Under the pieces are notes generated by a model. The model was not told where the DNA came from, searched no databases, and saw nothing but the letters and a program-made list of their open reading frames with translations. Shown piece after piece: positions 335 through 14,763 of a stretch of DNA of 14,763 bases; position 1 is the first letter of the stretch; each line of letters begins with the position of its first letter. Both the position numbers and the translations under genes were made by a program. Source of the stretch: a virus; the IMG/VR virus record IMGVR_UViG_3300036770_001415, positions 1-14,763 of that record; one strand, 5' to 3'.

Positions 335-682
335 ATGTCCGACCAGTACGAAATGTTCCAAGTGATCACAGGGCTCGCAGGCACTAAAGCAGTGCCAGTA
401 GATCGCAATGTGATCATCGTTGCAAATAAAGCACAGCCAACTTCACAGCGTGCAGCGATCAAAGCGTTCCCACGATCAGGCACAAAACGCCAAAAGATCT
501 ACAACGCGATTCGACTCTTCAAGGGTCTTACCGATGAAGAAATTGAGCGCACACTTGAGATGTCAGGCAACACTGTCCGACCTTCGCGTGTGTCACTTGT
601 GCGCGACGGGCTAGTCATGGATTCGGGCCAGACTCGACAAACTGTGTCTGGCAATGATGCGATCGTCTGGGTGGTGTGCTAA
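335..682 (+). CDS. Winged helix-turn-helix DNA-binding protein, 115 aa
   Basis: The C-terminal two thirds read KRQKIYNAIRLFKGLTDEEIERTLEMSGNTVRPSRVSLVRDGLVMDSGQTRQTVSGNDAIVWVV. This matches the common phage wHTH pattern (LTDxEI...NTxRPRRxxLxxxGxIxDSG...R...SG..AIVW). The stop TAA at 680-682 overlaps the next ATG. Confidence 0.8.
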   Translation: MSDQYEMFQVITGLAGTKAVPVDRNVIIVANKAQPTSQRAAIKAFPRSGTKRQKIYNAIRLFKGLTDEEIERTLEMSGNTVRPSRVSLVRDGLVMDSGQTRQTVSGNDAIVWVVC

Positions 683-1260
683 TGGGCTTTGATCTCAGCA
701 ACTATGAAACAGTCGAGCAGCGCTTAGTGCGCTTCTGGGCAACATTTCCAGACGGTCGTATTGAGACCTGCATGATGAACTATGACGGTGACTCTTGCAT
801 CTTCCGTGCAGAGCTCTACCGACATGCAGACGATGCCAAACCGATGTCAGTCGGTTACGCGCATGAGCAAAGATCTGACCGTGGGGTCAATATGACTAGC
901 TGGTGCGAAAACGGAGAAACTTCGGCAATCGGTCGCGCCATCAGCAATAGCCCCATCCAAGGACAAGGCAACGGTCCAAGACCTTCTCGTCAAGAGATGG
1001 AAAAGGTCGCTCGGCTGGGGGGCAACCTAGCGCCCACCACTGATCGCCCAGCCGGGCAACCATCCACACAAGAACACATCCCTCGAGGAGCGTTCGCGAC
1101 ACCAAAGCAACTCGGCTACATCAAGAAGCTTGCCAAGGATGCCGGCATGGATGATCTTCGACTATTGGAACTAATCCATCGTGAACTCAACGATGACAGC
1201 GCGGTCTTAGAACTATTGAAGTCACATGAAGCGAGCAAGATCATTGAGGTACTCAAATGA
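682..1260 (+). CDS. Probable ssDNA-binding or single-strand-annealing protein (Rad52-like motif) with a C-terminal helical KQxxYIxxL...EASxxIxxL module, 192 aa
   Basis: The ORF track gives 676..1260. The ATG at 682 overlaps the upstream stop as TAATG. The N-terminal domain FDLSNYETVEQRLVRFW...VNMTSWCENGETSAIGRAISN resembles the (A/E)ETSA(I/L)GRAL motif I associate with phage Rad52/Sak-like annealing proteins. This rests on recollection, not a search. The C-terminus reads TPKQLGYIKKLAKDAGMD...SHEASKIIEVLK. I am confident it is coding and only tentative about its function. Confidence 0.55.
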   Translation: MGFDLSNYETVEQRLVRFWATFPDGRIETCMMNYDGDSCIFRAELYRHADDAKPMSVGYAHEQRSDRGVNMTSWCENGETSAIGRAISNSPIQGQGNGPRPSRQEMEKVARLGGNLAPTTDRPAGQPSTQEHIPRGAFATPKQLGYIKKLAKDAGMDDLRLLELIHRELNDDSAVLELLKSHEASKIIEVLK

Positions 1261-2133: not shown

Positions 2134-3897
2134 ATGCCACGAGAACGCACAACAAACAACAAAGAATATGCAACCAACCGTGCAGCATTACTCAAAGGAC
2201 AACCGATGTGTCACTGGTGTCATCGCAAAGTTGCAGACACAGCAGATCATCTAGTCGAGGTTGATCGCGGTGGCGACCACTCACTCTCGAACCTTGTGCC
2301 GGCATGCAGAGAATGCAACAGCAGACGCGGAACACAATACAAAAGCGCACGCGACCGCCAACGAATCCACGACCGAGCCGAAGCAACACGCACACCAATC
2401 GTGAGAGATGGATTTTGTTCTGACGAACAGTCCTTGCCCCCGAGCCCATCGTTCTCTTTCTCCCCGAAGGACAGCGACCAGCCTGAACCAGAGCTCATTG
2501 GTCATGACCAGCCGAGACTGGCAACGATCAGCCCGGATCAGCTGGGATCACATGTGTGGGGTGTGGTGGAGTGGGCTCGCAAGTTCATGCAGATGGAGTT
2601 GATGGAGTGGCAGATCAATGCTCTTGCGGATCAGCTTGCGTATTCGGATGATGCCGGTATTGAGCTTGTGACTCGCACTTCTTTGGTGTCGTGTGCTCGC
2701 CAGCAGGGAAAGTCTGTTGCGCTTCGAGCTCTTGCTGGGTGGTGGCTGACTGAGATGCCAAAGATTCGCGGTGAGAAGCAGACTGTGCTTTTGATGGCTC
2801 ATCGTCTTGATTCGGCCGCACAGATCTATGAGGAAATTGCTGACATTCTTGAGCAATACTTTGATGCAAAGCTCACACGCTCTTATGGTCGTCTTGCTGC
2901 CAAGTTGCCGGACGGATCCAAGCTTCTAGTGCGTTCCGCAAAGCCCAATGCAGCGCACGGTCTGTCCGTTGATCTTGCTCTTGTAGACGAAGTGTGGGGA
3001 ATTGACGAAGAAGTGATTGATGGTGGTATCACACCGACAATGCGCGCACGCCGCTTTCCATTGTTGAGCATGTGGTCTACTGCCGGCACAGAAGAATCTA
3101 AAGTCATGCAACGCTATCGAGAGATGGGTCTTCGTCTGATTGACACACATCAGCCGACTAACTTTCACTTCCGTGAATGGTCTCCACCGCCAGACCTAGA
3201 CCCGATGGATCCTGTCGCATGGTGCTATGCGAACCCAGCGCTCGGCAAAACACTTGAGATGTCCACCATTGAATCAGAAGCACAGCTCCCCGATCGCGCA
3301 TCATTCCTACGCTCGAGTGTGAACCTTTGGATCGCGACTGATCGCTCATGGCTCCCACAGGGTCTCTGGACACAGCTCGCCACTAGTGAACCGTTGCCGG
3401 CTGGCGGTGTCGTCGCGGTAGAGGTGGACTTCAATGACTCGCACTATTACGCCACACGATCGGTCCTGCTGCCGGACGGTCGCATCGGTGTCACAGTTGC
3501 ATTCACTTGCGACACACAAACCCAGCTATGGGAACATGTGCGCGAACTTGCCAAAGACCCCACAATCCAATTCGCGCTCACACCGACAGTCGATCTGCAA
3601 TGCCCACCTGCGATCGAGCGTCGGCGTGTTGTCGTGGGTTATGCAGAAATCTTGAAATGGACTCCAGCTGTCCAAGGTCTAATCCGTGAGCGACAGATCG
3701 TCCACACAGGCGAGATGGCGTTAGCAGAGCATGTCGTGCGCGCGGTAAGTGTTCGCACACAAGGCAGTATCGCGGTCAGCTCGCAAAGGTCTCCCGGACC
3801 CATCGAGCTATGTCGCACGATGATCTTCAGTAGCGCGATCGTTGCCGGCAATCGTCATGCTCGAGGGAAGCCACAGCTCGTCGTTGTAGCGAACTAA
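2134..3897 (+). CDS. HNH endonuclease fused to the large terminase subunit (TerL), 587 aa
   Basis: The N-terminus CHWCHRKVADTADHLVEVDRGGDHSLSNLVPACRECNSRRG is a zinc-finger HNH motif (CxxC...DH...N...CxxCN). A low-complexity linker follows (aa about 75-135, SLPPSPSFSFSPKDSDQPEPE). Next comes the TerL ATPase, with a Walker A-like CARQQGKSVA and a Walker B DLALVDEVW, then a C-terminal RNase H-like nuclease region (VAVEVDFNDSHYYAT...). It is one uninterrupted reading frame. Confidence 0.9.
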   Translation: MPRERTTNNKEYATNRAALLKGQPMCHWCHRKVADTADHLVEVDRGGDHSLSNLVPACRECNSRRGTQYKSARDRQRIHDRAEATRTPIVRDGFCSDEQSLPPSPSFSFSPKDSDQPEPELIGHDQPRLATISPDQLGSHVWGVVEWARKFMQMELMEWQINALADQLAYSDDAGIELVTRTSLVSCARQQGKSVALRALAGWWLTEMPKIRGEKQTVLLMAHRLDSAAQIYEEIADILEQYFDAKLTRSYGRLAAKLPDGSKLLVRSAKPNAAHGLSVDLALVDEVWGIDEEVIDGGITPTMRARRFPLLSMWSTAGTEESKVMQRYREMGLRLIDTHQPTNFHFREWSPPPDLDPMDPVAWCYANPALGKTLEMSTIESEAQLPDRASFLRSSVNLWIATDRSWLPQGLWTQLATSEPLPAGGVVAVEVDFNDSHYYATRSVLLPDGRIGVTVAFTCDTQTQLWEHVRELAKDPTIQFALTPTVDLQCPPAIERRRVVVGYAEILKWTPAVQGLIRERQIVHTGEMALAEHVVRAVSVRTQGSIAVSSQRSPGPIELCRTMIFSSAIVAGNRHARGKPQLVVVAN

Positions 3898-3947
3898 GAT
3901 CAGCGCGGAGTCGCGTGTCAAGCCTTTCGTCGGAGAAGGTTCCCCCG

Positions 3948-5087
3948 ATGCGCGACTCCACTAGAAAACTGTGGAAGAGTGGACACATGGGATTATTCAA
4001 CCGAGTGAACAAACCAGCATTGGCAACTGAATACGGCGCGATAGAGATCACTGCGGCAGTCGGTGGCTCGAATGTCGGCGCATCACAAGTCGGCAACTAC
4101 ATCGCGTACTCAGACGGAACTGGTCGCGAGCGGATGATGAGCTTGGCTGTCATTGCGCGTGCAAGAGACTTGATCTGCACCACGATCTCAGGCATGAAGT
4201 TTGAGATGTATCGTGAAATGTGGAACGGCGACGAAATGGAAGAAGTGCCACTCGCACCACGCGCATGGCTTGCACGCATGGACAAAGGCGTGCCGAACTC
4301 CACGCTCCTCAGCTGGCTTGCTGATGACCTCATCTTCTGGGGTCGCGCCTTCCTCTATGTGAATGAAAGGACCAGCGATCTTTATCCTTCAAGCTACACA
4401 AGACTCCCGGCAGCAATGGTCCAGACACTCGACCAGCAAGGTCCGGTCTTCTTCGGACCATCAAATCAGGTGCTATTCAACGGCATGGAAATTGACTCGC
4501 GAGATCTGATCCAATTCATCAGCCCGATGCAAGGCATTCTCTTCACCGGTCGCCGACCAGCCGAAACAGCAATCCGCATCGAAGAGGCACGCATGCGAAA
4601 CGCATCCTCAGCAATCCCAGCTGGCGTACTCAAGCAGACAGGCGGAGAACCACTAAGCGGTCAAGAACTCGCAGACCTTGCTGCACAGTTCAACCTTGCG
4701 CGAGCAACAAACCAGACCGCAGCGCTCAATGAGTTCCTCAGCTACACAGAGACCAACGCAACACCAGACAAGATGCTTCTCATCGACTCAGCTGATTACA
4801 GTGCGCGCGATCTCGGTCGTCTTCTTGGCGTTCCTAGTTACTTGCTGTCGGTCAGCATCGGCGCATACAGCTACCAGTCAGCCCAGCAATCACGCATGGA
4901 TCTCTGGCAATACGCATGCAAACCGATCGCAGACTGCATCACACAAACCTTGTCAAGCGACAACAATCTTCCACGCGGAACCATGGTCAAGTTCGATGTC
5001 GATGACTTCCTCTCCGAGACCTACATGGGCGACGAAATGGAAGACCGCGAAGAGATGCCAGATCAGTCCACTATGGGCGCAAGCTGA
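3948..5087 (+). CDS. Portal protein (HK97-type portal family), about 379 aa
   Basis: Portal-like blocks are present: WLARMDKGVPNSTLLSWLADDLIFWGRAFLYVNER and IPAGVLKQTGGEPLSGQELADLAAQFN. The gene sits directly after TerL. The ORF track opens at a GTG at 3915. I prefer the ATG at 3948, which is preceded by GGAGAAGG (3932-3939). The ATG at 3987 (MGLFNRV...) is an alternative. Confidence 0.88.
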   Translation: MRDSTRKLWKSGHMGLFNRVNKPALATEYGAIEITAAVGGSNVGASQVGNYIAYSDGTGRERMMSLAVIARARDLICTTISGMKFEMYREMWNGDEMEEVPLAPRAWLARMDKGVPNSTLLSWLADDLIFWGRAFLYVNERTSDLYPSSYTRLPAAMVQTLDQQGPVFFGPSNQVLFNGMEIDSRDLIQFISPMQGILFTGRRPAETAIRIEEARMRNASSAIPAGVLKQTGGEPLSGQELADLAAQFNLARATNQTAALNEFLSYTETNATPDKMLLIDSADYSARDLGRLLGVPSYLLSVSIGAYSYQSAQQSRMDLWQYACKPIADCITQTLSSDNNLPRGTMVKFDVDDFLSETYMGDEMEDREEMPDQSTMGAS

Positions 5088-5105: not shown

Positions 5106-6650
5106 ATGTTGAAATTACACGCAGGACAATTCACGATTGACGCAGCGCAAGGTGACCAGCCACGACGCATGATCTCGGGAATCGCAGTTCGATACAACAC
5201 AGAAGCCACTGTCAGCGATGGCACTCGAGTTATGTTCGCTCCTGGCTCATTGCCATCAGACGGACCAGCACCAAAGCTTTTCATGTATCACGATGCAACC
5301 AAAGTCATCGGAACAGTGACCGAACGGGTAGAGACCGAGGAAGGCATGCTTTTCTCAGCCAAGGTCGCAGACACAACTCTTGGCTCGGAAGCGCTTGTCC
5401 TCGCAGCTGCTGGAGCGCTCTCGGATGTCTCAGTCGGGGTCGAGCCTGTCAAGTTCAAGTACGACAAAAACGGTGTCATGGTAATCACAGCAAGTCGCTG
5501 GATGGAGCTGTCGGTCGTGCCACACGGCGCATTCGACGCACCCATCCTTGATGTCGCTGCGAGTATCCACCAAGACGACGAAGAAGTAAGCAATAATCAA
5601 GAAGCAGTCCAAGAAACGGAGAACGAAATGTCAGAACAAGTAGAAGCCCCAGCAGTAGTCGAGGCATCAACCATTACTCAAACCCTCTACGCACAGCCAC
5701 GCAAAGAGTTCAAGTTGCCATCAGCTGGCGAATGGATCTCAGCACAAATGCAAGGCGGAGCAGTCGCAGCAGAATTGAATGCGCGAGTTCGCGCTGCAGC
5801 GCCAGATGTAGTGACTTCAGATCTTGATGGCATCCTGCCATTGCCGATCGTGTCACCGATCTACAACAATTTCCGCGGGTTGCGTCCTGTGATTGATGCT
5901 GTCGGCGTTCGCGCAATGCCACAGTCGGGCAAAGTGTTCATCCGCCCAGTGGTAAGCACACATACATCAATGGCAGTCGCCAGCGAAAACACCACCATCC
6001 AAAGCGGAACTTTTGTGGTGAACGATGTGCAAATCACTAAGGGAATCTACGGTGGATATGTTGATGTATCGGAAGCTTCACTTGACTGGACACAGCCAGA
6101 AGTTCTCGGTGCAATGCTTGACGACATGGCTCGTGTTTATGCAAACACGGTAGACAATGTTGCAGCAGACGCACTCGAAGCTGGAACAACCAACACCAAC
6201 AACTTCACATCAGCAGACATTGCCAAGCCAGAAGTATGGGTCGCTTGGATCTATCAAGCAGCATCAGACATCTTGACCGGATCAAACGGCAACTTGCCTA
6301 CGCACTTGTTCATGGCTCCTAACCGTTGGGCTTCACTTGGAAACTTGAGCGATGACAGTGGTCGTCCATTGTTCCCGAACATCGGACCAATGAACGCACT
6401 CGGTCAGCTCGCACCGGGAGACTACGCCGGCAACGCATTCGGCTTGCAGGTAGTGGTGGACCGTAACCTTCCATCTGGAACGCTCATCATCGGTGATGCG
6501 ACCAGCGGTGGCTTCGAGTGTTGGGAACAGCAGAAGGGCGCAATATCAATTGATGTGCCTTCCAAGCTGGAGCGCACCATCGCCTTCCGTGGCTACTTCG
6601 CCGCGAAGATGATTGACGACACCAAGTTCATCAAAGCAGCATTCGTCTGA
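5106..6650 (+). CDS. Prohead protease (HK97/S78-like), acidic scaffold-like linker and HK97-fold major capsid protein, fused in one 514-aa ORF
   Basis: Residues 1 to about 160 carry protease motifs (FMYHDATKVIGT, LSDVSVGVEP, MELSVVPHGAFDAP). Residues about 160-230 form an acidic, Gln/Glu-rich linker. Residues about 230-514 are capsid-like (LPLPIVSPIYNNFRGLRPVIDAV, SGRPLFPNIGPMNALG, GLQVVVDRNLPSGTLIIGD, RTIAFRGYFAAKM). An in-frame ATG at 5628 is preceded by GGAG (5618-5621) with a 6-nt spacer. Confidence 0.88.
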   Translation: MLKLHAGQFTIDAAQGDQPRRMISGIAVRYNTEATVSDGTRVMFAPGSLPSDGPAPKLFMYHDATKVIGTVTERVETEEGMLFSAKVADTTLGSEALVLAAAGALSDVSVGVEPVKFKYDKNGVMVITASRWMELSVVPHGAFDAPILDVAASIHQDDEEVSNNQEAVQETENEMSEQVEAPAVVEASTITQTLYAQPRKEFKLPSAGEWISAQMQGGAVAAELNARVRAAAPDVVTSDLDGILPLPIVSPIYNNFRGLRPVIDAVGVRAMPQSGKVFIRPVVSTHTSMAVASENTTIQSGTFVVNDVQITKGIYGGYVDVSEASLDWTQPEVLGAMLDDMARVYANTVDNVAADALEAGTTNTNNFTSADIAKPEVWVAWIYQAASDILTGSNGNLPTHLFMAPNRWASLGNLSDDSGRPLFPNIGPMNALGQLAPGDYAGNAFGLQVVVDRNLPSGTLIIGDATSGGFECWEQQKGAISIDVPSKLERTIAFRGYFAAKMIDDTKFIKAAFV

Positions 6651-13336: not shown

Positions 13337-13511
13337 AGACAAAGCAATGCTTGCCAGCTATGCGCGATCAGCAATCGGTGCGATGCTCGCTGTGTACTCG
13401 GTCGGCGCGACAGATCCTCGAGACTTCGCCAAAGCAGCGATCGCAGCAGTACTCCCACCGATCATCCGCTGGGCGAACCCGAAAGATTTATCCTTTGGGC
13501 GCACCAAATAG
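13317..13511 (+). CDS. Holin-like membrane protein (r1t-holin-like pattern), 64 aa
   Basis: The sequence is MLKITAKDKAMLASYARSAIGAMLAVYSVGATDPRDFAKAAIAAVLPPIIRWANPKD. Two amphipathic or hydrophobic Ala-rich segments are separated by a turn, and the gene lies directly upstream of the endolysin. The track start at 13308 is a TTG and I prefer the ATG at 13317. Confidence 0.68.
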   Translation: MLKITAKDKAMLASYARSAIGAMLAVYSVGATDPRDFAKAAIAAVLPPIIRWANPKDLSFGRTK

Positions 13512-13563
13512 CAGACCGTACACCGGCACAGCTGACGGACCAGCGAAAGCGCGTCGCGCTGGC

Positions 13564-13974
13564 ATGGACGAATGGATCAAACAAGCGATCCACGCATCTG
13601 GAAACACGCTCACAAACCTTGGATCGTATGCGATCAGAGACCAGAAGGGTCACGCTGGAGTTCTGAGTGTTCACGCGACTGGTAGAGCTGTCGATCTTGG
13701 CTTCACCGATCGCAAAGCAGCGCTCAAGTTCATCAACACAGTTGCACAGAACGCGAACGAGCTCGGTGTTGAGTGCATTCTCGATTACTTTCCGAAGCCT
13801 TGGGGTCGCGGATATCGCTGTGACCGACAAAAGTGGAAGCGCTACATGAAGCGGACGATCGCTGGCGCACCGGGCGGACGATGGGCTCATTTTGAGATCA
13901 CACCACAAGCTGCGGACTCGGTGATCTGGGTCAAATCCGCGTTCCTAAAGGTCTTTGGAGAAATCCACCAATAG
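13564..13974 (+). CDS. Endolysin, LAS/M15-type zinc peptidase (D-Ala-D-Ala carboxypeptidase or L-Ala-D-Glu peptidase-like), 137 aa
   Basis: SVHATGRAVDL (S-x-H-x-x-G-x-A-x-D) and GGRWAHFEI (W-x-H-F-E) are the metal-ligand motifs of M15/LAS peptidases. The track ORF opens at 13351, but its first 71 codons overlap the holin out of frame and are Arg/Ser-rich junk. The first ATG after the holin stop is at 13564. Confidence 0.85.
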   Translation: MDEWIKQAIHASGNTLTNLGSYAIRDQKGHAGVLSVHATGRAVDLGFTDRKAALKFINTVAQNANELGVECILDYFPKPWGRGYRCDRQKWKRYMKRTIAGAPGGRWAHFEITPQAADSVIWVKSAFLKVFGEIHQ

Positions 13975-14022: not shown

Positions 14023-14199
14023 ATGGCAGAACCTCAGATCTTCAACTACTCCGTGTACACAGGAGTGATGGATAACGGACAAGAGATCCTCGTGCAGATA
14101 TTCACTGAACCTGACACCGGCAAATACCTACTCGGACAGATTGCATTCAGATCGCACGCTTCATCATGGGGCGTGCCTATACCACTGGAGAAAAAATGA
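14023..14199 (+). CDS. Small hypothetical protein, 58 aa (below the ORF-track cutoff)
   Basis: My own translation is MAEPQIFNYSVYTGVMDNGQEILVQIFTEPDTGKYLLGQIAFRSHASSWGVPIPLEKK*. The stop overlaps the ATG of the transglycosylase gene as ATGA (14196-14199). It contains no hydrophobic segment. Confidence 0.5.
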   Translation: MAEPQIFNYSVYTGVMDNGQEILVQIFTEPDTGKYLLGQIAFRSHASSWGVPIPLEKK

Positions 14200-14696
14200 A
14201 CTACTTTGCAGAGAAATTGATAGGGCTAGTACTTTGTACTGTTTTCGGATTCACGCTTATCCCAGAGGCTCCTAGAGCCCTCTCAGAGCCTTCCCAGACC
14301 ATAGAACTAGCACCATATTTGATTGAACCAGCCACCACAACCAGCTCTACAAGCTCCACGATCTACATCGATCCATACAGCTCAGCCTGTGAGCAGTTCA
14401 GCGCACTCGCCATCAATCTCGGCTGGGATCCGGATCAACGGACCGTACTCGAGTCGATCATGTTCAGAGAGTCGCGTTGCATCCCCAGCAGCGTGAACCC
14501 GAACGATCCGAAAGGCTCCTATGGGCTCATGCAGGTCAATGGATTCTGGCTGGAATATCTGAGCGACCGTGGCATCATCACCGAGCTCTCAGATCTGTTA
14601 CAGGCTCAAACTAATCTCATTGCAGCGTTAGAGATTTACAACTACGGAATGGACCGATACGGCTACGGCTGGGGTCCGTGGAGTGCAACAAAATGA
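14196..14696 (+). CDS. Lytic transglycosylase (SLT/GH23-like) with an N-terminal signal-anchor and a Thr/Ser-rich linker, 166 aa
   Basis: The N-terminus MNYFAEKLIGLVLCTVFGFTLIPEAP is hydrophobic. A linker EPATTTSSTSSTIYIDPYSS follows. The catalytic domain has MFRESRC (the E-S catalytic Glu motif), GSYGLMQVNGFW and AALEIYNYG. The track start at 14166 lies upstream, and the ATG at 14196 is coupled to the preceding ORF. The gene runs into the terminal repeat. Confidence 0.85.
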   Translation: MNYFAEKLIGLVLCTVFGFTLIPEAPRALSEPSQTIELAPYLIEPATTTSSTSSTIYIDPYSSACEQFSALAINLGWDPDQRTVLESIMFRESRCIPSSVNPNDPKGSYGLMQVNGFWLEYLSDRGIITELSDLLQAQTNLIAALEIYNYGMDRYGYGWGPWSATK

Positions 14697-14763
14697 GCGA
14701 AGGCACAGCATGGAACCAAGGAGAACTCACCGAAGAGACTCGCAAGCTTGTGCTCGAACGCAC
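14637..14763. repeat. Right copy of the terminal direct repeat (identical to 1-127)
   Basis: Exact 127-nt identity with the start of the window. Its length equals a k-mer size commonly used as the maximum in de Bruijn assemblers, so it is probably a circular-assembly overlap rather than a measured physical terminal repeat. Confidence 0.97.

Follow-up and report, generated by a model that had tools for sequence, protein, structure and literature searches.

The locus described here raises the question of whether an HNH endonuclease and a large terminase (TerL) that are encoded in one continuous frame work as a single packaging enzyme, and where on the genome such an enzyme would cut. The DNA analyzed, referred to below as the window, is the whole 14,763-nucleotide (nt) stretch of IMG/VR virus record IMGVR_UViG_3300036770_001415, and the gene in question is an open reading frame (ORF) at positions 2134 to 3897 on the + strand, which starts with ATG and encodes 587 amino acids (aa). 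An earlier sequence-only reading had described it as an HNH endonuclease joined in frame to TerL, with no small terminase (TerS) gene, and had left the packaging site open. Our analysis indicates that the ORF probably encodes a single-chain terminase for a cohesive-end site (cos), in which an HNH nickase of the HK97 gp74 type is tethered to an HK97-type TerL. Moreover, cos itself very probably lies at 2439 to 2448, within the linker-coding DNA of this same ORF, a location missed in the earlier reading.

The two ends of the window carry an exact 127-nt direct repeat, the stretch at 14637 to 14763 being an assembly overlap identical to positions 1 to 127, which identifies the window as a complete circular assembly of 14,636 bp. 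Since the genome is complete and all of its genes are visible, the absence of a TerS gene elsewhere can be judged genome-wide.

The HNH-linker-TerL reading frame and its conservation

The ORF product was examined by profile searches and by an AlphaFold2 model built on a 31-sequence alignment, which reached a mean predicted local distance difference test score (pLDDT) of 84.9. The HNH domain of Pfam (PF01844, E 7e-9) matched aa 26 to 67, TerL_nuclease (PF20441) matched aa 350 to 435, and PHROG 9 (TerL) matched aa 114 to 448 (E 5e-42), while the two best PDB sequence matches were the HNH endonuclease 4h9d (E 1e-6) and the HK97 large terminase 6z6d. The model contained a confident HNH module at aa ~10 to 85, helix 59-84 included, and TerL was modeled confidently from aa ~119 onward; the closest fold in the PDB was again 6z6d (E 8.6e-19), and the full-length fold also resembles TerL of D6E, T4, and Sf6. 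The in-frame fusion at 2134 to 3897 was thus confirmed by Pfam, PHROG, and both Walker motifs.

Four parts can be distinguished along the chain. The HNH nuclease module (aa 1 to 85; 2134 to 2388, + strand) is delimited by PF01844, 4h9d, the alignment, and the HNH protein of the Gordonia phage Schiebs, with whose last-gene HNH it shares 61% identity over 41 aa. It carries the ββα-metal motif CxxC...DH...N...CxxC of HNH-assisted terminases, with C26, C29, C58, and C61 as predicted zinc ligands and D38-H39, N53, and N62 as predicted catalytic residues; C26, C29, D38, H39, C58, C61, and N62 are invariant in the 31-sequence alignment. A disordered linker follows (aa 86 to 118; 2389 to 2487, + strand; pLDDT <50), which is the most variable part of the protein and whose DNA contains the cos signals. 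Next comes a conserved N-terminal TerL extension (aa 119 to 149; 2488 to 2580, + strand; pLDDT 88 to 97) with a G-H-D-Q-P-R-L-E/A-T motif, and then the TerL core (2581 to 3894, + strand), comprising the ATPase and an RNase H-like nuclease (aa ~350 to 575), as defined by PHROG 9, PF20441, and 6z6d. The linker had been taken to span 60 to 70 aa and turned out to measure ~33 aa, since helix 59-84 is part of the HNH module and a folded TerL extension takes up aa ~119 to 150. Walker A (SCARQQGKS, aa 186 to 194) and Walker B (LALVDEVW, aa 281 to 288) mark an ASCE ATPase, which together with the C-terminal RNase H-like nuclease places the protein among the large terminases; the GKS of Walker A (aa 192 to 194) and the DE of Walker B (aa 285 to 286) are invariant in the family. 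The alignment with the Schiebs TerL begins at aa 151 of the window protein.

Some variation was also seen within the HNH half. In one sub-lineage (P0042, P0049, P0060, and P0071), Asn53 of the HNH motif (NLVP) is replaced by Gly (DGYVP or DGLVP), and the Pfam HNH domain is no longer called in three of these four sequences, although the fusion is retained. In certain relatives (L092, 264 to ~1000; P0276, 747 aa), HNH and TerL are separated by an inserted Cys-rich, zinc-ribbon-like segment of ~150 aa.

The fusion is almost certainly genuine, conserved, and widespread. Among 344 homologues retrieved from a large protein database, more than 100 were full length (575 to 608 aa), with 45 to 92% identity, from independent samples and on contigs clustering at 14 to 16 kb; homologues that look shorter owe this to the start codons chosen by gene callers, as the DNA carries the HNH in frame. 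The frame between HNH and TerL was then examined at 149 family loci. A single ORF extending at least 480 aa beyond the HNH motif was present at 93 of them, and at another 44 the contig ended less than 300 nt past the HNH with the frame still open, the remainder being 2 partial loci and 10 that start downstream of the HNH. No stop codon between HNH and TerL was found at any of the 149 loci, which, together with the full-length homologues from independent samples, excludes the sequencing error that the sequence-only reading had itself considered.

The architecture is not rare. At least 584 IMG/VR contigs encode a relative, and a remote search of 1.84 billion cluster representatives, made with no word index, recovered fusion relatives at E <= 1e-30 in 114 clusters (50% identity). 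Full-length fused forms reach down to ~29 to 33% identity, and the layout in distant members is that of HNH, an F/P-rich stretch, PRLET, and TerL. Yet no cultured phage of the INPHARED set has the HNH-TerL architecture, and full-text literature searches turned up no paper on an HNH-TerL fusion or on any gene that runs across a true cos.

The putative cos site and constraint on the linker-coding DNA

The position of cos was deduced from where contigs end. The window reads ...GGATTTTGTTCTGACGAACAGTCCTTGCC followed by the decamer CCCGAGCCCA (2439 to 2448) and then TCGTTCTC..., so that the right genome end maps to 2438 and the left genome end to 2449. In a fetch anchored on TerL, contigs from four samples (L013, L015, L017, and L018) begin exactly at 2449, and three further contigs begin within 20 nt of it. 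In a fetch anchored on the HNH, about half of 80 loci lie on contigs that stop soon after the HNH, many of these contigs measuring 13.9 to 16 kb, and their terminal bases (...GCC, ...GAC, or ...CAC) are those directly 5' of the decamer. A T-run (2413 to 2416) precedes the cut, TTTT in the window and T5 to T7 in most relatives, 22 to 27 nt ahead of the decamer and conserved at the DNA level. Counted from the T-run, ~33 of the 39 contigs that end in the linker stop at +22 to +28, which is the exact decamer start. The gap between right and left contig ends is a fixed 10 nt, and the ends share their position relative to the decamer across lineages of only ~45 to 50% protein identity.

In relatives that read through the linker, the decamer has the form CCCG(A/C/T)(G/C/A/T)CC.. 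and is found at 95 of 100 loci, 22 to 27 nt past the T-run start in 88 of these; in the insertion-bearing L092 it was not found within 330 nt downstream of the HNH. The decamer is absent from both types of contig end, which may reflect end-polishing of a 3' overhang, and a cut at this site would leave 10-nt 3' cohesive ends. The decamer also recurs at the termini of cultured phages, namely, Schiebs and, as a close variant, Root and Penoan, which are compared below. As in HNH-assisted terminases, the HNH lies directly upstream of cos and the terminase directly downstream.

Selection on the two sides of the cut appears to act at different levels. Column information over 84 distinct sequences was highest at TTTTTT and CCCCGAGCCC, third codon positions included, and this conservation of third positions in the T-run and the decamer points to constraint at the DNA level. 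The segment so constrained coincides with the one that AlphaFold leaves disordered. The Ser/Pro-rich linker that had been noted earlier (PPSPSFSFSP) is indeed present, and what had escaped notice is that it is largely translated cos sequence. Beyond cos, the G-H-D-Q-P-R-L-E-T motif lies 19 to 21 residues downstream, and its P, R, and L/I hardly vary or do not vary at all. Its codons vary synonymously (AGA, CGA, AGG, and CGC for R; CTG, TTG, CTT, CTA, and TTA for L), and this free variation in the PR(L/I)ET motif indicates constraint at the protein level.

The same motif bears on how the gene is translated. Between cos and PRLET, no in-frame ATG, GTG, or TTG exists in 53 of 83 distinct sequences; in the others, start codons are scattered and a Shine-Dalgarno sequence is missing except in one small lineage. 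Because the motif is usually not preceded by a start codon, it would be translated only from the ATG of the HNH, across cos, and the codon pattern thus indicates that the fusion protein is made.

Small terminase, mode of action, and known systems

No ORF of the complete genome matched a TerS model in Pfam, PHROGs, or NCBIfam, nor was the separate TerS gene of HK97-type phages found. The TerS proteins of Schiebs and of Rhodococcus phage RRH1 matched none of the window proteins by blastp and gave hhalign probabilities of <2% against three candidate families, and profile searches against PDB sequences for TerS were negative. The interval between cos and the TerL core comprises just 42 codons, all belonging to the conserved TerL extension. 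The claim of a missing TerS was therefore borne out as far as homology reaches: that no detectable homologue exists at the canonical or any other position of the genome, and no TerS-sized gene between cos and TerL, is well supported by these searches, which is not proof of absence. We consider the true absence of TerS slightly better than an even bet. The longest + strand ORF directly upstream of the gene, previously put at ~21 codons, has in fact 49 codons (1981 to 2130, GTG start); it overlaps the structured RNA described below and occurs in just 4 of 14 complete relatives, all of which were rotated to cos for this comparison of gene content.

Three small right-arm proteins were considered as TerS candidates. 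The best, by fold type only, is the winged-helix protein at 335 to 682 (+ strand), whose homologues have weak matches to DUF3489 and HTH_20. It had been named earlier as a possible source of DNA recognition, and in the comparison with known TerS it gave an hhalign probability of 1.6%. It is present in 8 of the 14 complete relatives, other proteins filling the slot elsewhere, and the 87-aa protein at 57 to 320 is present in 10 of them. The third candidate, a 194-aa protein at 676 to 1260 (+ strand; family F8), occurs in all 14 complete genomes and at 121 loci and has more than 1,100 database homologues, in some of which PF27148 is matched; it belongs to PHROG 11717, of unknown function. It was TerS-like by no test (hhalign probability against the Schiebs and RRH1 TerS, 0.07%), its AlphaFold2 model was of low confidence (pLDDT 61.6), and the searches gave neither an informative sequence match nor a significant PDB fold match.

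Apart from the two lysins, the non-structural proteins present in 14 of the 14 complete relatives are this 194-aa protein and HNH-TerL, which makes it the only universal non-structural, non-lysis protein besides the fusion. Its sequence contains a conserved ENCETSAIGRA motif, and an alpha-beta-beta-beta-alpha domain is predicted at its N-terminus with moderate confidence, followed toward the C-terminus by a helical domain weakly similar to GemA/DUF3072. Readings of it as a Rad52-like annealing protein or as an alpha-beta-beta-beta-alpha domain like that of double-stranded RNA-binding proteins were guesses that found no support.

By analogy with HK97, the following sequence of events can be proposed. 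The HNH nickase (aa ~1 to 85) would be held by a disordered tether of ~33 residues to the ATPase and RNase H-like nuclease of TerL, and the DNA that encodes the tether would be cos itself, in which ~20 bp separate the T-run from the decamer CCCGAGCCCA. Fusion protein made from circular or concatemeric DNA would cut concatemers inside the sequence that encodes it, one strand being nicked by the HNH and the other by the TerL nuclease, 10 bp apart at the decamer, on the model of HK97 gp74 and TerL. Recognition of cos might be supplied by the tethered HNH together with the terminase, not by TerS. The ATPase would then translocate DNA from the left end, beginning with the TerL-coding part, and virion DNA would have the TerL part of the gene at its extreme left and the HNH part at its extreme right. 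After injection, the cohesive ends could anneal and be ligated, restoring the complete gene, which would also be intact in concatemers. With cos inside the gene, an intact copy would exist only in circularized or concatemeric DNA, and the packaging enzyme would destroy its own template.

In HK97, TerS is dispensable in vitro for packaging linear DNA, and gp74 promotes TerL cleavage at cos (Fung et al., PMC9410871), which makes a TerS-less arrangement mechanistically conceivable if the tethered HNH gives specificity. That these miniphages package cos DNA without any TerS, one polypeptide recognizing, cutting, and translocating, is nevertheless rather doubtful at present. In such a system, the tethered HNH would give specificity for the T-run and the decamer, and the location of cos within its own gene would gate terminase expression by circularization and shut it off by packaging. 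As a still bolder extension, the upstream RNA could be a functional partner, either a leader for terminase translation or a packaging RNA cofactor.

A TerS may exist unrecognized, one of the small right-arm proteins (335 to 682, 57 to 320, or 676 to 1260) recognizing cos and recruiting the fusion, so that the system would be a normal three-activity HK97-type machine in which only HNH and TerL have been joined. In vivo, TerS is normally required for cos packaging (PMC9611059). TerS families diverge strongly and often go unnoticed, the 335-682 family gives weak winged-helix signals, and the 676-1260 family is universal without an assigned function. Against this stand the failure of every TerS model and of the Schiebs and RRH1 TerS to match, the patchy distribution of the winged-helix and 87-aa proteins, and the position of all candidates away from TerL, whose canonical TerS slot is taken up by the 42 codons of the extension. 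We regard this as a real possibility, though one that falls short of even. Alternatively, the frame could be continuous and the products separate, TerL arising from an internal start or by linker proteolysis and the HNH acting in trans. The linker is disordered; internal starts are frequently picked by gene callers; and in-frame GTG or ATG codons with Shine-Dalgarno-like sequences are scattered at aa ~140 to 157 in some members. None of these starts is conserved, however, and the PRLET motif with the folded extension (aa 119 to 150), under selection at the protein level, lies upstream of all of them. All 93 read-through genomes lack a stop despite deep divergence, and proteolysis after translation would still require synthesis as a fusion. 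We find separate products improbable and think it likely that the protein acts as a covalent fusion.

Two further explanations were considered. The contig ends in the linker could be assembly breaks in a C-rich or hypervariable stretch, with the true packaging site elsewhere, for instance in the 395-bp intergenic region upstream of the ORF. It is true that the linker is the most variable protein segment and that many contigs, the window included, read through it, yet assembly breaks would hardly fall at one nucleotide relative to the decamer across lineages of ~45 to 50% protein identity, keep a constant 10-nt gap between right and left ends, or coincide with the decamer that terminates Schiebs and, in a close variant, Root and Penoan. 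A cos in the intergenic region was itself ruled out, as the termini fall within the ORF, 305 nt farther downstream, and the region shows covariation of the RNA type and not a conserved duplex site; assembly breaks are accordingly very unlikely. Finally, HNH homing endonucleases are often found in or beside terminase genes (PMC10448857), and the HNH could be a selfish element of this kind that settled at the terL 5' end, or an indel or sequencing artifact could account for the fusion. Against this, the module occurs without exception and in the same order in hundreds of independent genomes, and no read-through relative lacks it. No further DNA-binding domain accompanies it, its nearest matches are packaging-type HNH proteins encoded by the final gene of cultured relatives, and relative to cos it sits where stand-alone HNH genes do. 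To this last explanation we give hardly any weight.

Some points nonetheless count against the single-chain, TerS-less scheme as proposed. The termini are placed by contig ends and by the terminal sequence of a cultured relative, and left ends came from the lineage of the window only (4 exact, 3 within +/-20 nt). We take the final 10 nt of the Schiebs record to be its 3' overhang, following the SEA-PHAGES deposition convention. Post-translational cleavage of the linker, or extra TerL from an internal start (V141, M152, or others), may occur, and a TerS of an unrecognized type may be present. The replacement of the structural Asn N53 by Gly in some homologues also means that HNH catalysis may not be universal.

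Among known systems, HK97 is the closest in working principle. Both encode a ββα-metal HNH beside cos at the right genome end, and the window shares with HK97 the type of TerL (best PDB match, 6z6d), the portal, the S78 protease, the capsid, and, as predicted here, 3' cohesive ends; by analogy, the HNH would be expected to assist TerL in cos cleavage. In HK97, gp74 (HNH), gp1 (TerS), and gp2 (TerL) are separate, whereas in the window family HNH and TerL are one polypeptide and a TerS gene was not found. Moreover, cos is intergenic in HK97 and inside coding sequence here, and the overhang of 12 nt (PMC9410871) compares with the 10 nt we infer. Apart from the separate TerS, the covalent fusion, and the location of cos within coding sequence, the working principle is that of HK97-type HNH-assisted cos packaging.

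Small cultured actinophages offer a second comparison. Schiebs (cluster CW3; 14,646 bp) and RRH1 (14.3 kb) resemble the window in genome size, gene order, the capsid-protease fusion, and an HNH as the last gene, with an HNH core 57 to 61% identical. The Schiebs record ends ...GGAAGC CCCGCGCCCA, which is near-identical to the window decamer and equals the decamer of many family members, and a T-rich stretch (GGTTTC) lies at a similar distance before the terminus. Unlike in the window, the HNH gene of these phages has its own stop, 31 nt (Schiebs) or 86 nt (RRH1) before the end, and cos is followed by a TerS gene of 126 to 135 aa and then by a separate TerL of 436 to 445 aa that is merely ~25% identical; the structured RNA upstream of the window ORF went undetected in both. 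The Curtobacterium phages Root and Penoan (15.1 to 15.3 kb) have CCCGCGCCAGC at their record termini and a T-rich TTCTTTGG upstream. In Root (PQ868947, L153), an HNH-like ORF at 14860 to 15138 joined to 1 to 100 has no stop before the terminus and crosses cos. It differs from the window ORF in stopping ~100 nt into the left end, and both phages differ in having three small genes between the genome end and a separate terminase gene (526 aa in Root). For Penoan, terminal sequences only were read, and the ORF was traced in Root. The HNH region at the genome end is unannotated in both Root and Penoan (L154, MZ333133; 57 to 194, minus strand), which in Root is probably a gap in annotation that comes from treating the genome as linear. 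Taken together, these genomes appear to form a series, from a stop just before cos in Schiebs, through an ORF that crosses cos in Root, to one that crosses into TerL with TerS missing in the window family.

Packaging sites within terminase genes have precedents in pac phages, the pac sites of P22 and P1 lying inside small-subunit genes (gene 3 and pacA, respectively). The likeness is that a packaging site is embedded in terminase coding sequence; the difference is that P22 and P1 package by headful with terminal redundancy, so that most virions keep an intact gene, and that the site is in TerS, whereas in the window family a unique cos would divide the gene in every virion. In the literature searched, "wraparound genes" are described only for cluster C1 mycobacteriophages; these genomes are circularly permuted, which makes their ends arbitrary. 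A speculative likeness to phi29 lies in the lack of TerS and in a genome-encoded structured RNA (the packaging RNA, pRNA, in phi29). In phi29, the linear DNA is protein-primed and the ATPase has no nuclease domain, in contrast to the nuclease and predicted cos ends of the window TerL, and the window RNA has no Rfam match, pRNA included, and no link to the portal; the features of pRNA-dependent packaging are thus not found here.

Help of the gp74 type to TerL is known, whereas which strand each nuclease cuts and how the two are coupled is not, and a natural 1:1 HNH-TerL fusion with a mapped staggered cut of a putative 10 nt would be a simple system for both questions. Should no TerS be needed, this would be the minimal known cos packaging machine and would challenge the view of TerS as essential for cos recognition. 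With a unique cos in an essential late gene, the gene would be split in each virion and its expression would need end-joining, which would be an unusual way to compact a genome and to control expression in time. In freshwater metagenomes the family is both abundant and diverse, and annotation pipelines mis-call the gene through internal starts or, as in phage Root, miss it across the genome ends.

The upstream structured RNA and neighboring genes

A structured RNA element of ~300 nt (1820 to 2133, + strand; core, 1870 to 2002) directly precedes the HNH-TerL start, within the 395-bp gap, and has GNRA-type loops. It was identified by RNAalifold and a covariance model, and no Rfam match was obtained even at E <= 10. 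Across 14 close relatives, RNAalifold predicted 66 pairs, 25 of them with compensatory changes affecting both partners. With a covariance model of the core, 70 loci were found, all on the + strand and ~130 to 300 nt upstream of the HNH start, even in lineages with only ~47 to 52% TerL identity; a second model gave weaker, shorter matches at the equivalent position of other lineages, with no match among cultured phages. In a 58-sequence alignment, 95.5% of cells were paired and 28 of 34 pairs had changed on both sides; the covariation score was 0.553 against 0.173 for shuffled alignments (reached in 0 of 500 shuffles) and 0.04 to 0.09 with partners slid, figures that are somewhat inflated because this alignment was fitted to the model. 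Frequent G-U pairs place the RNA on the + strand. Overall, comparison among relatives points to a new, strongly covarying RNA family, visible only by comparison, as single-sequence folding of the intergenic region was unremarkable (z = 0.06). Promoter and terminator scans gave background level.

As hypotheses, the RNA may serve as a leader that acts in translation or antitermination of the late operon, as a primer or origin RNA in a phage with no recognizable replication genes, or as a packaging cofactor. A hammerhead ribozyme, suggested by a conserved CUGAUGAG at ~1945 to 1952, was rejected: the octamer is restricted to the close lineage of the window (12 of 124 upstream regions), and at E <= 10 neither a hammerhead nor any other Rfam model was matched. 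RNA-guided recognition of cos in the manner of IscB was rejected as well, since complementarity between RNA and cos was not beyond chance, there was no match to HEARO or another Rfam model of the IscB/omega-RNA kind, and the IscB resemblance of the protein is one of the HNH only; the HNH module (2134 to 2394, aa 8 to 87) gave a weak NCBIfam IscB match of 26.7 bits against a cut-off of 175, over the HNH domain only. Between the VRR-NUC stop and the RNA start, a segment of ~66 to 90 nt (1749 to 1815) is shared only by the window and L007 among the 14 close relatives; an extra hairpin is predicted there, and it looks like a variable 5' domain or an insertion.

All plausible genes of the window are on the + strand. 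The final protein gene ahead of the structured RNA and the HNH start encodes a VRR-NUC nuclease (1397 to 1738, + strand; PF08774, E 5e-9), as the sequence-only reading had it, and is present in 10 of the 14 complete relatives. Downstream of HNH-TerL follow the portal protein (3915 to 5087, + strand; PF04860, E 1e-21) and an HK97-like prohead protease-major capsid fusion (5106 to 6650, + strand; PF04586 and PF25209; PHROG 2263, E 1e-77), and the other neighbors are a connector, tail genes, a tape measure, and two lysins. Searches of the window for tRNAs and Rfam families gave no match, and no near-identical cultured phage was found. No genes for DNA replication, integration, or transcription regulation are recognizable in the 14.6-kb genome, VRR-NUC and HNH-TerL being its sole DNA-metabolism functions.

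With its size, the window genome belongs to the freshwater "miniphage" class of 13.5 to 15 kb (Kavagutti et al. 2019, bioRxiv 10.1101/670067). A search of 185,579 species genomes gave only six matches (L155 to L160), all on short contigs in freshwater metagenome-assembled genomes of inconsistent taxa (Proteobacteria, Rhodobacteraceae, Nanopelagicaceae, Acidimicrobiaceae, Chloroflexota, and Chitinophagia); they have the appearance of phage contigs that were binned wrongly and give no host assignment. Two separate lysis enzymes are encoded, at 13351 to 13974 and at 14166 to 14696, one with an M15-like peptidase motif read by eye (HATGRAVD...WFHIE) and the other an SLT-type lytic transglycosylase (PF18896, PF01464). 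In the L001 lineage, the VRR-NUC slot holds a separate 185-aa protein (L001, 806 to 1363) with a second HNH-like motif, CxxC...DHLD...CxxCH.

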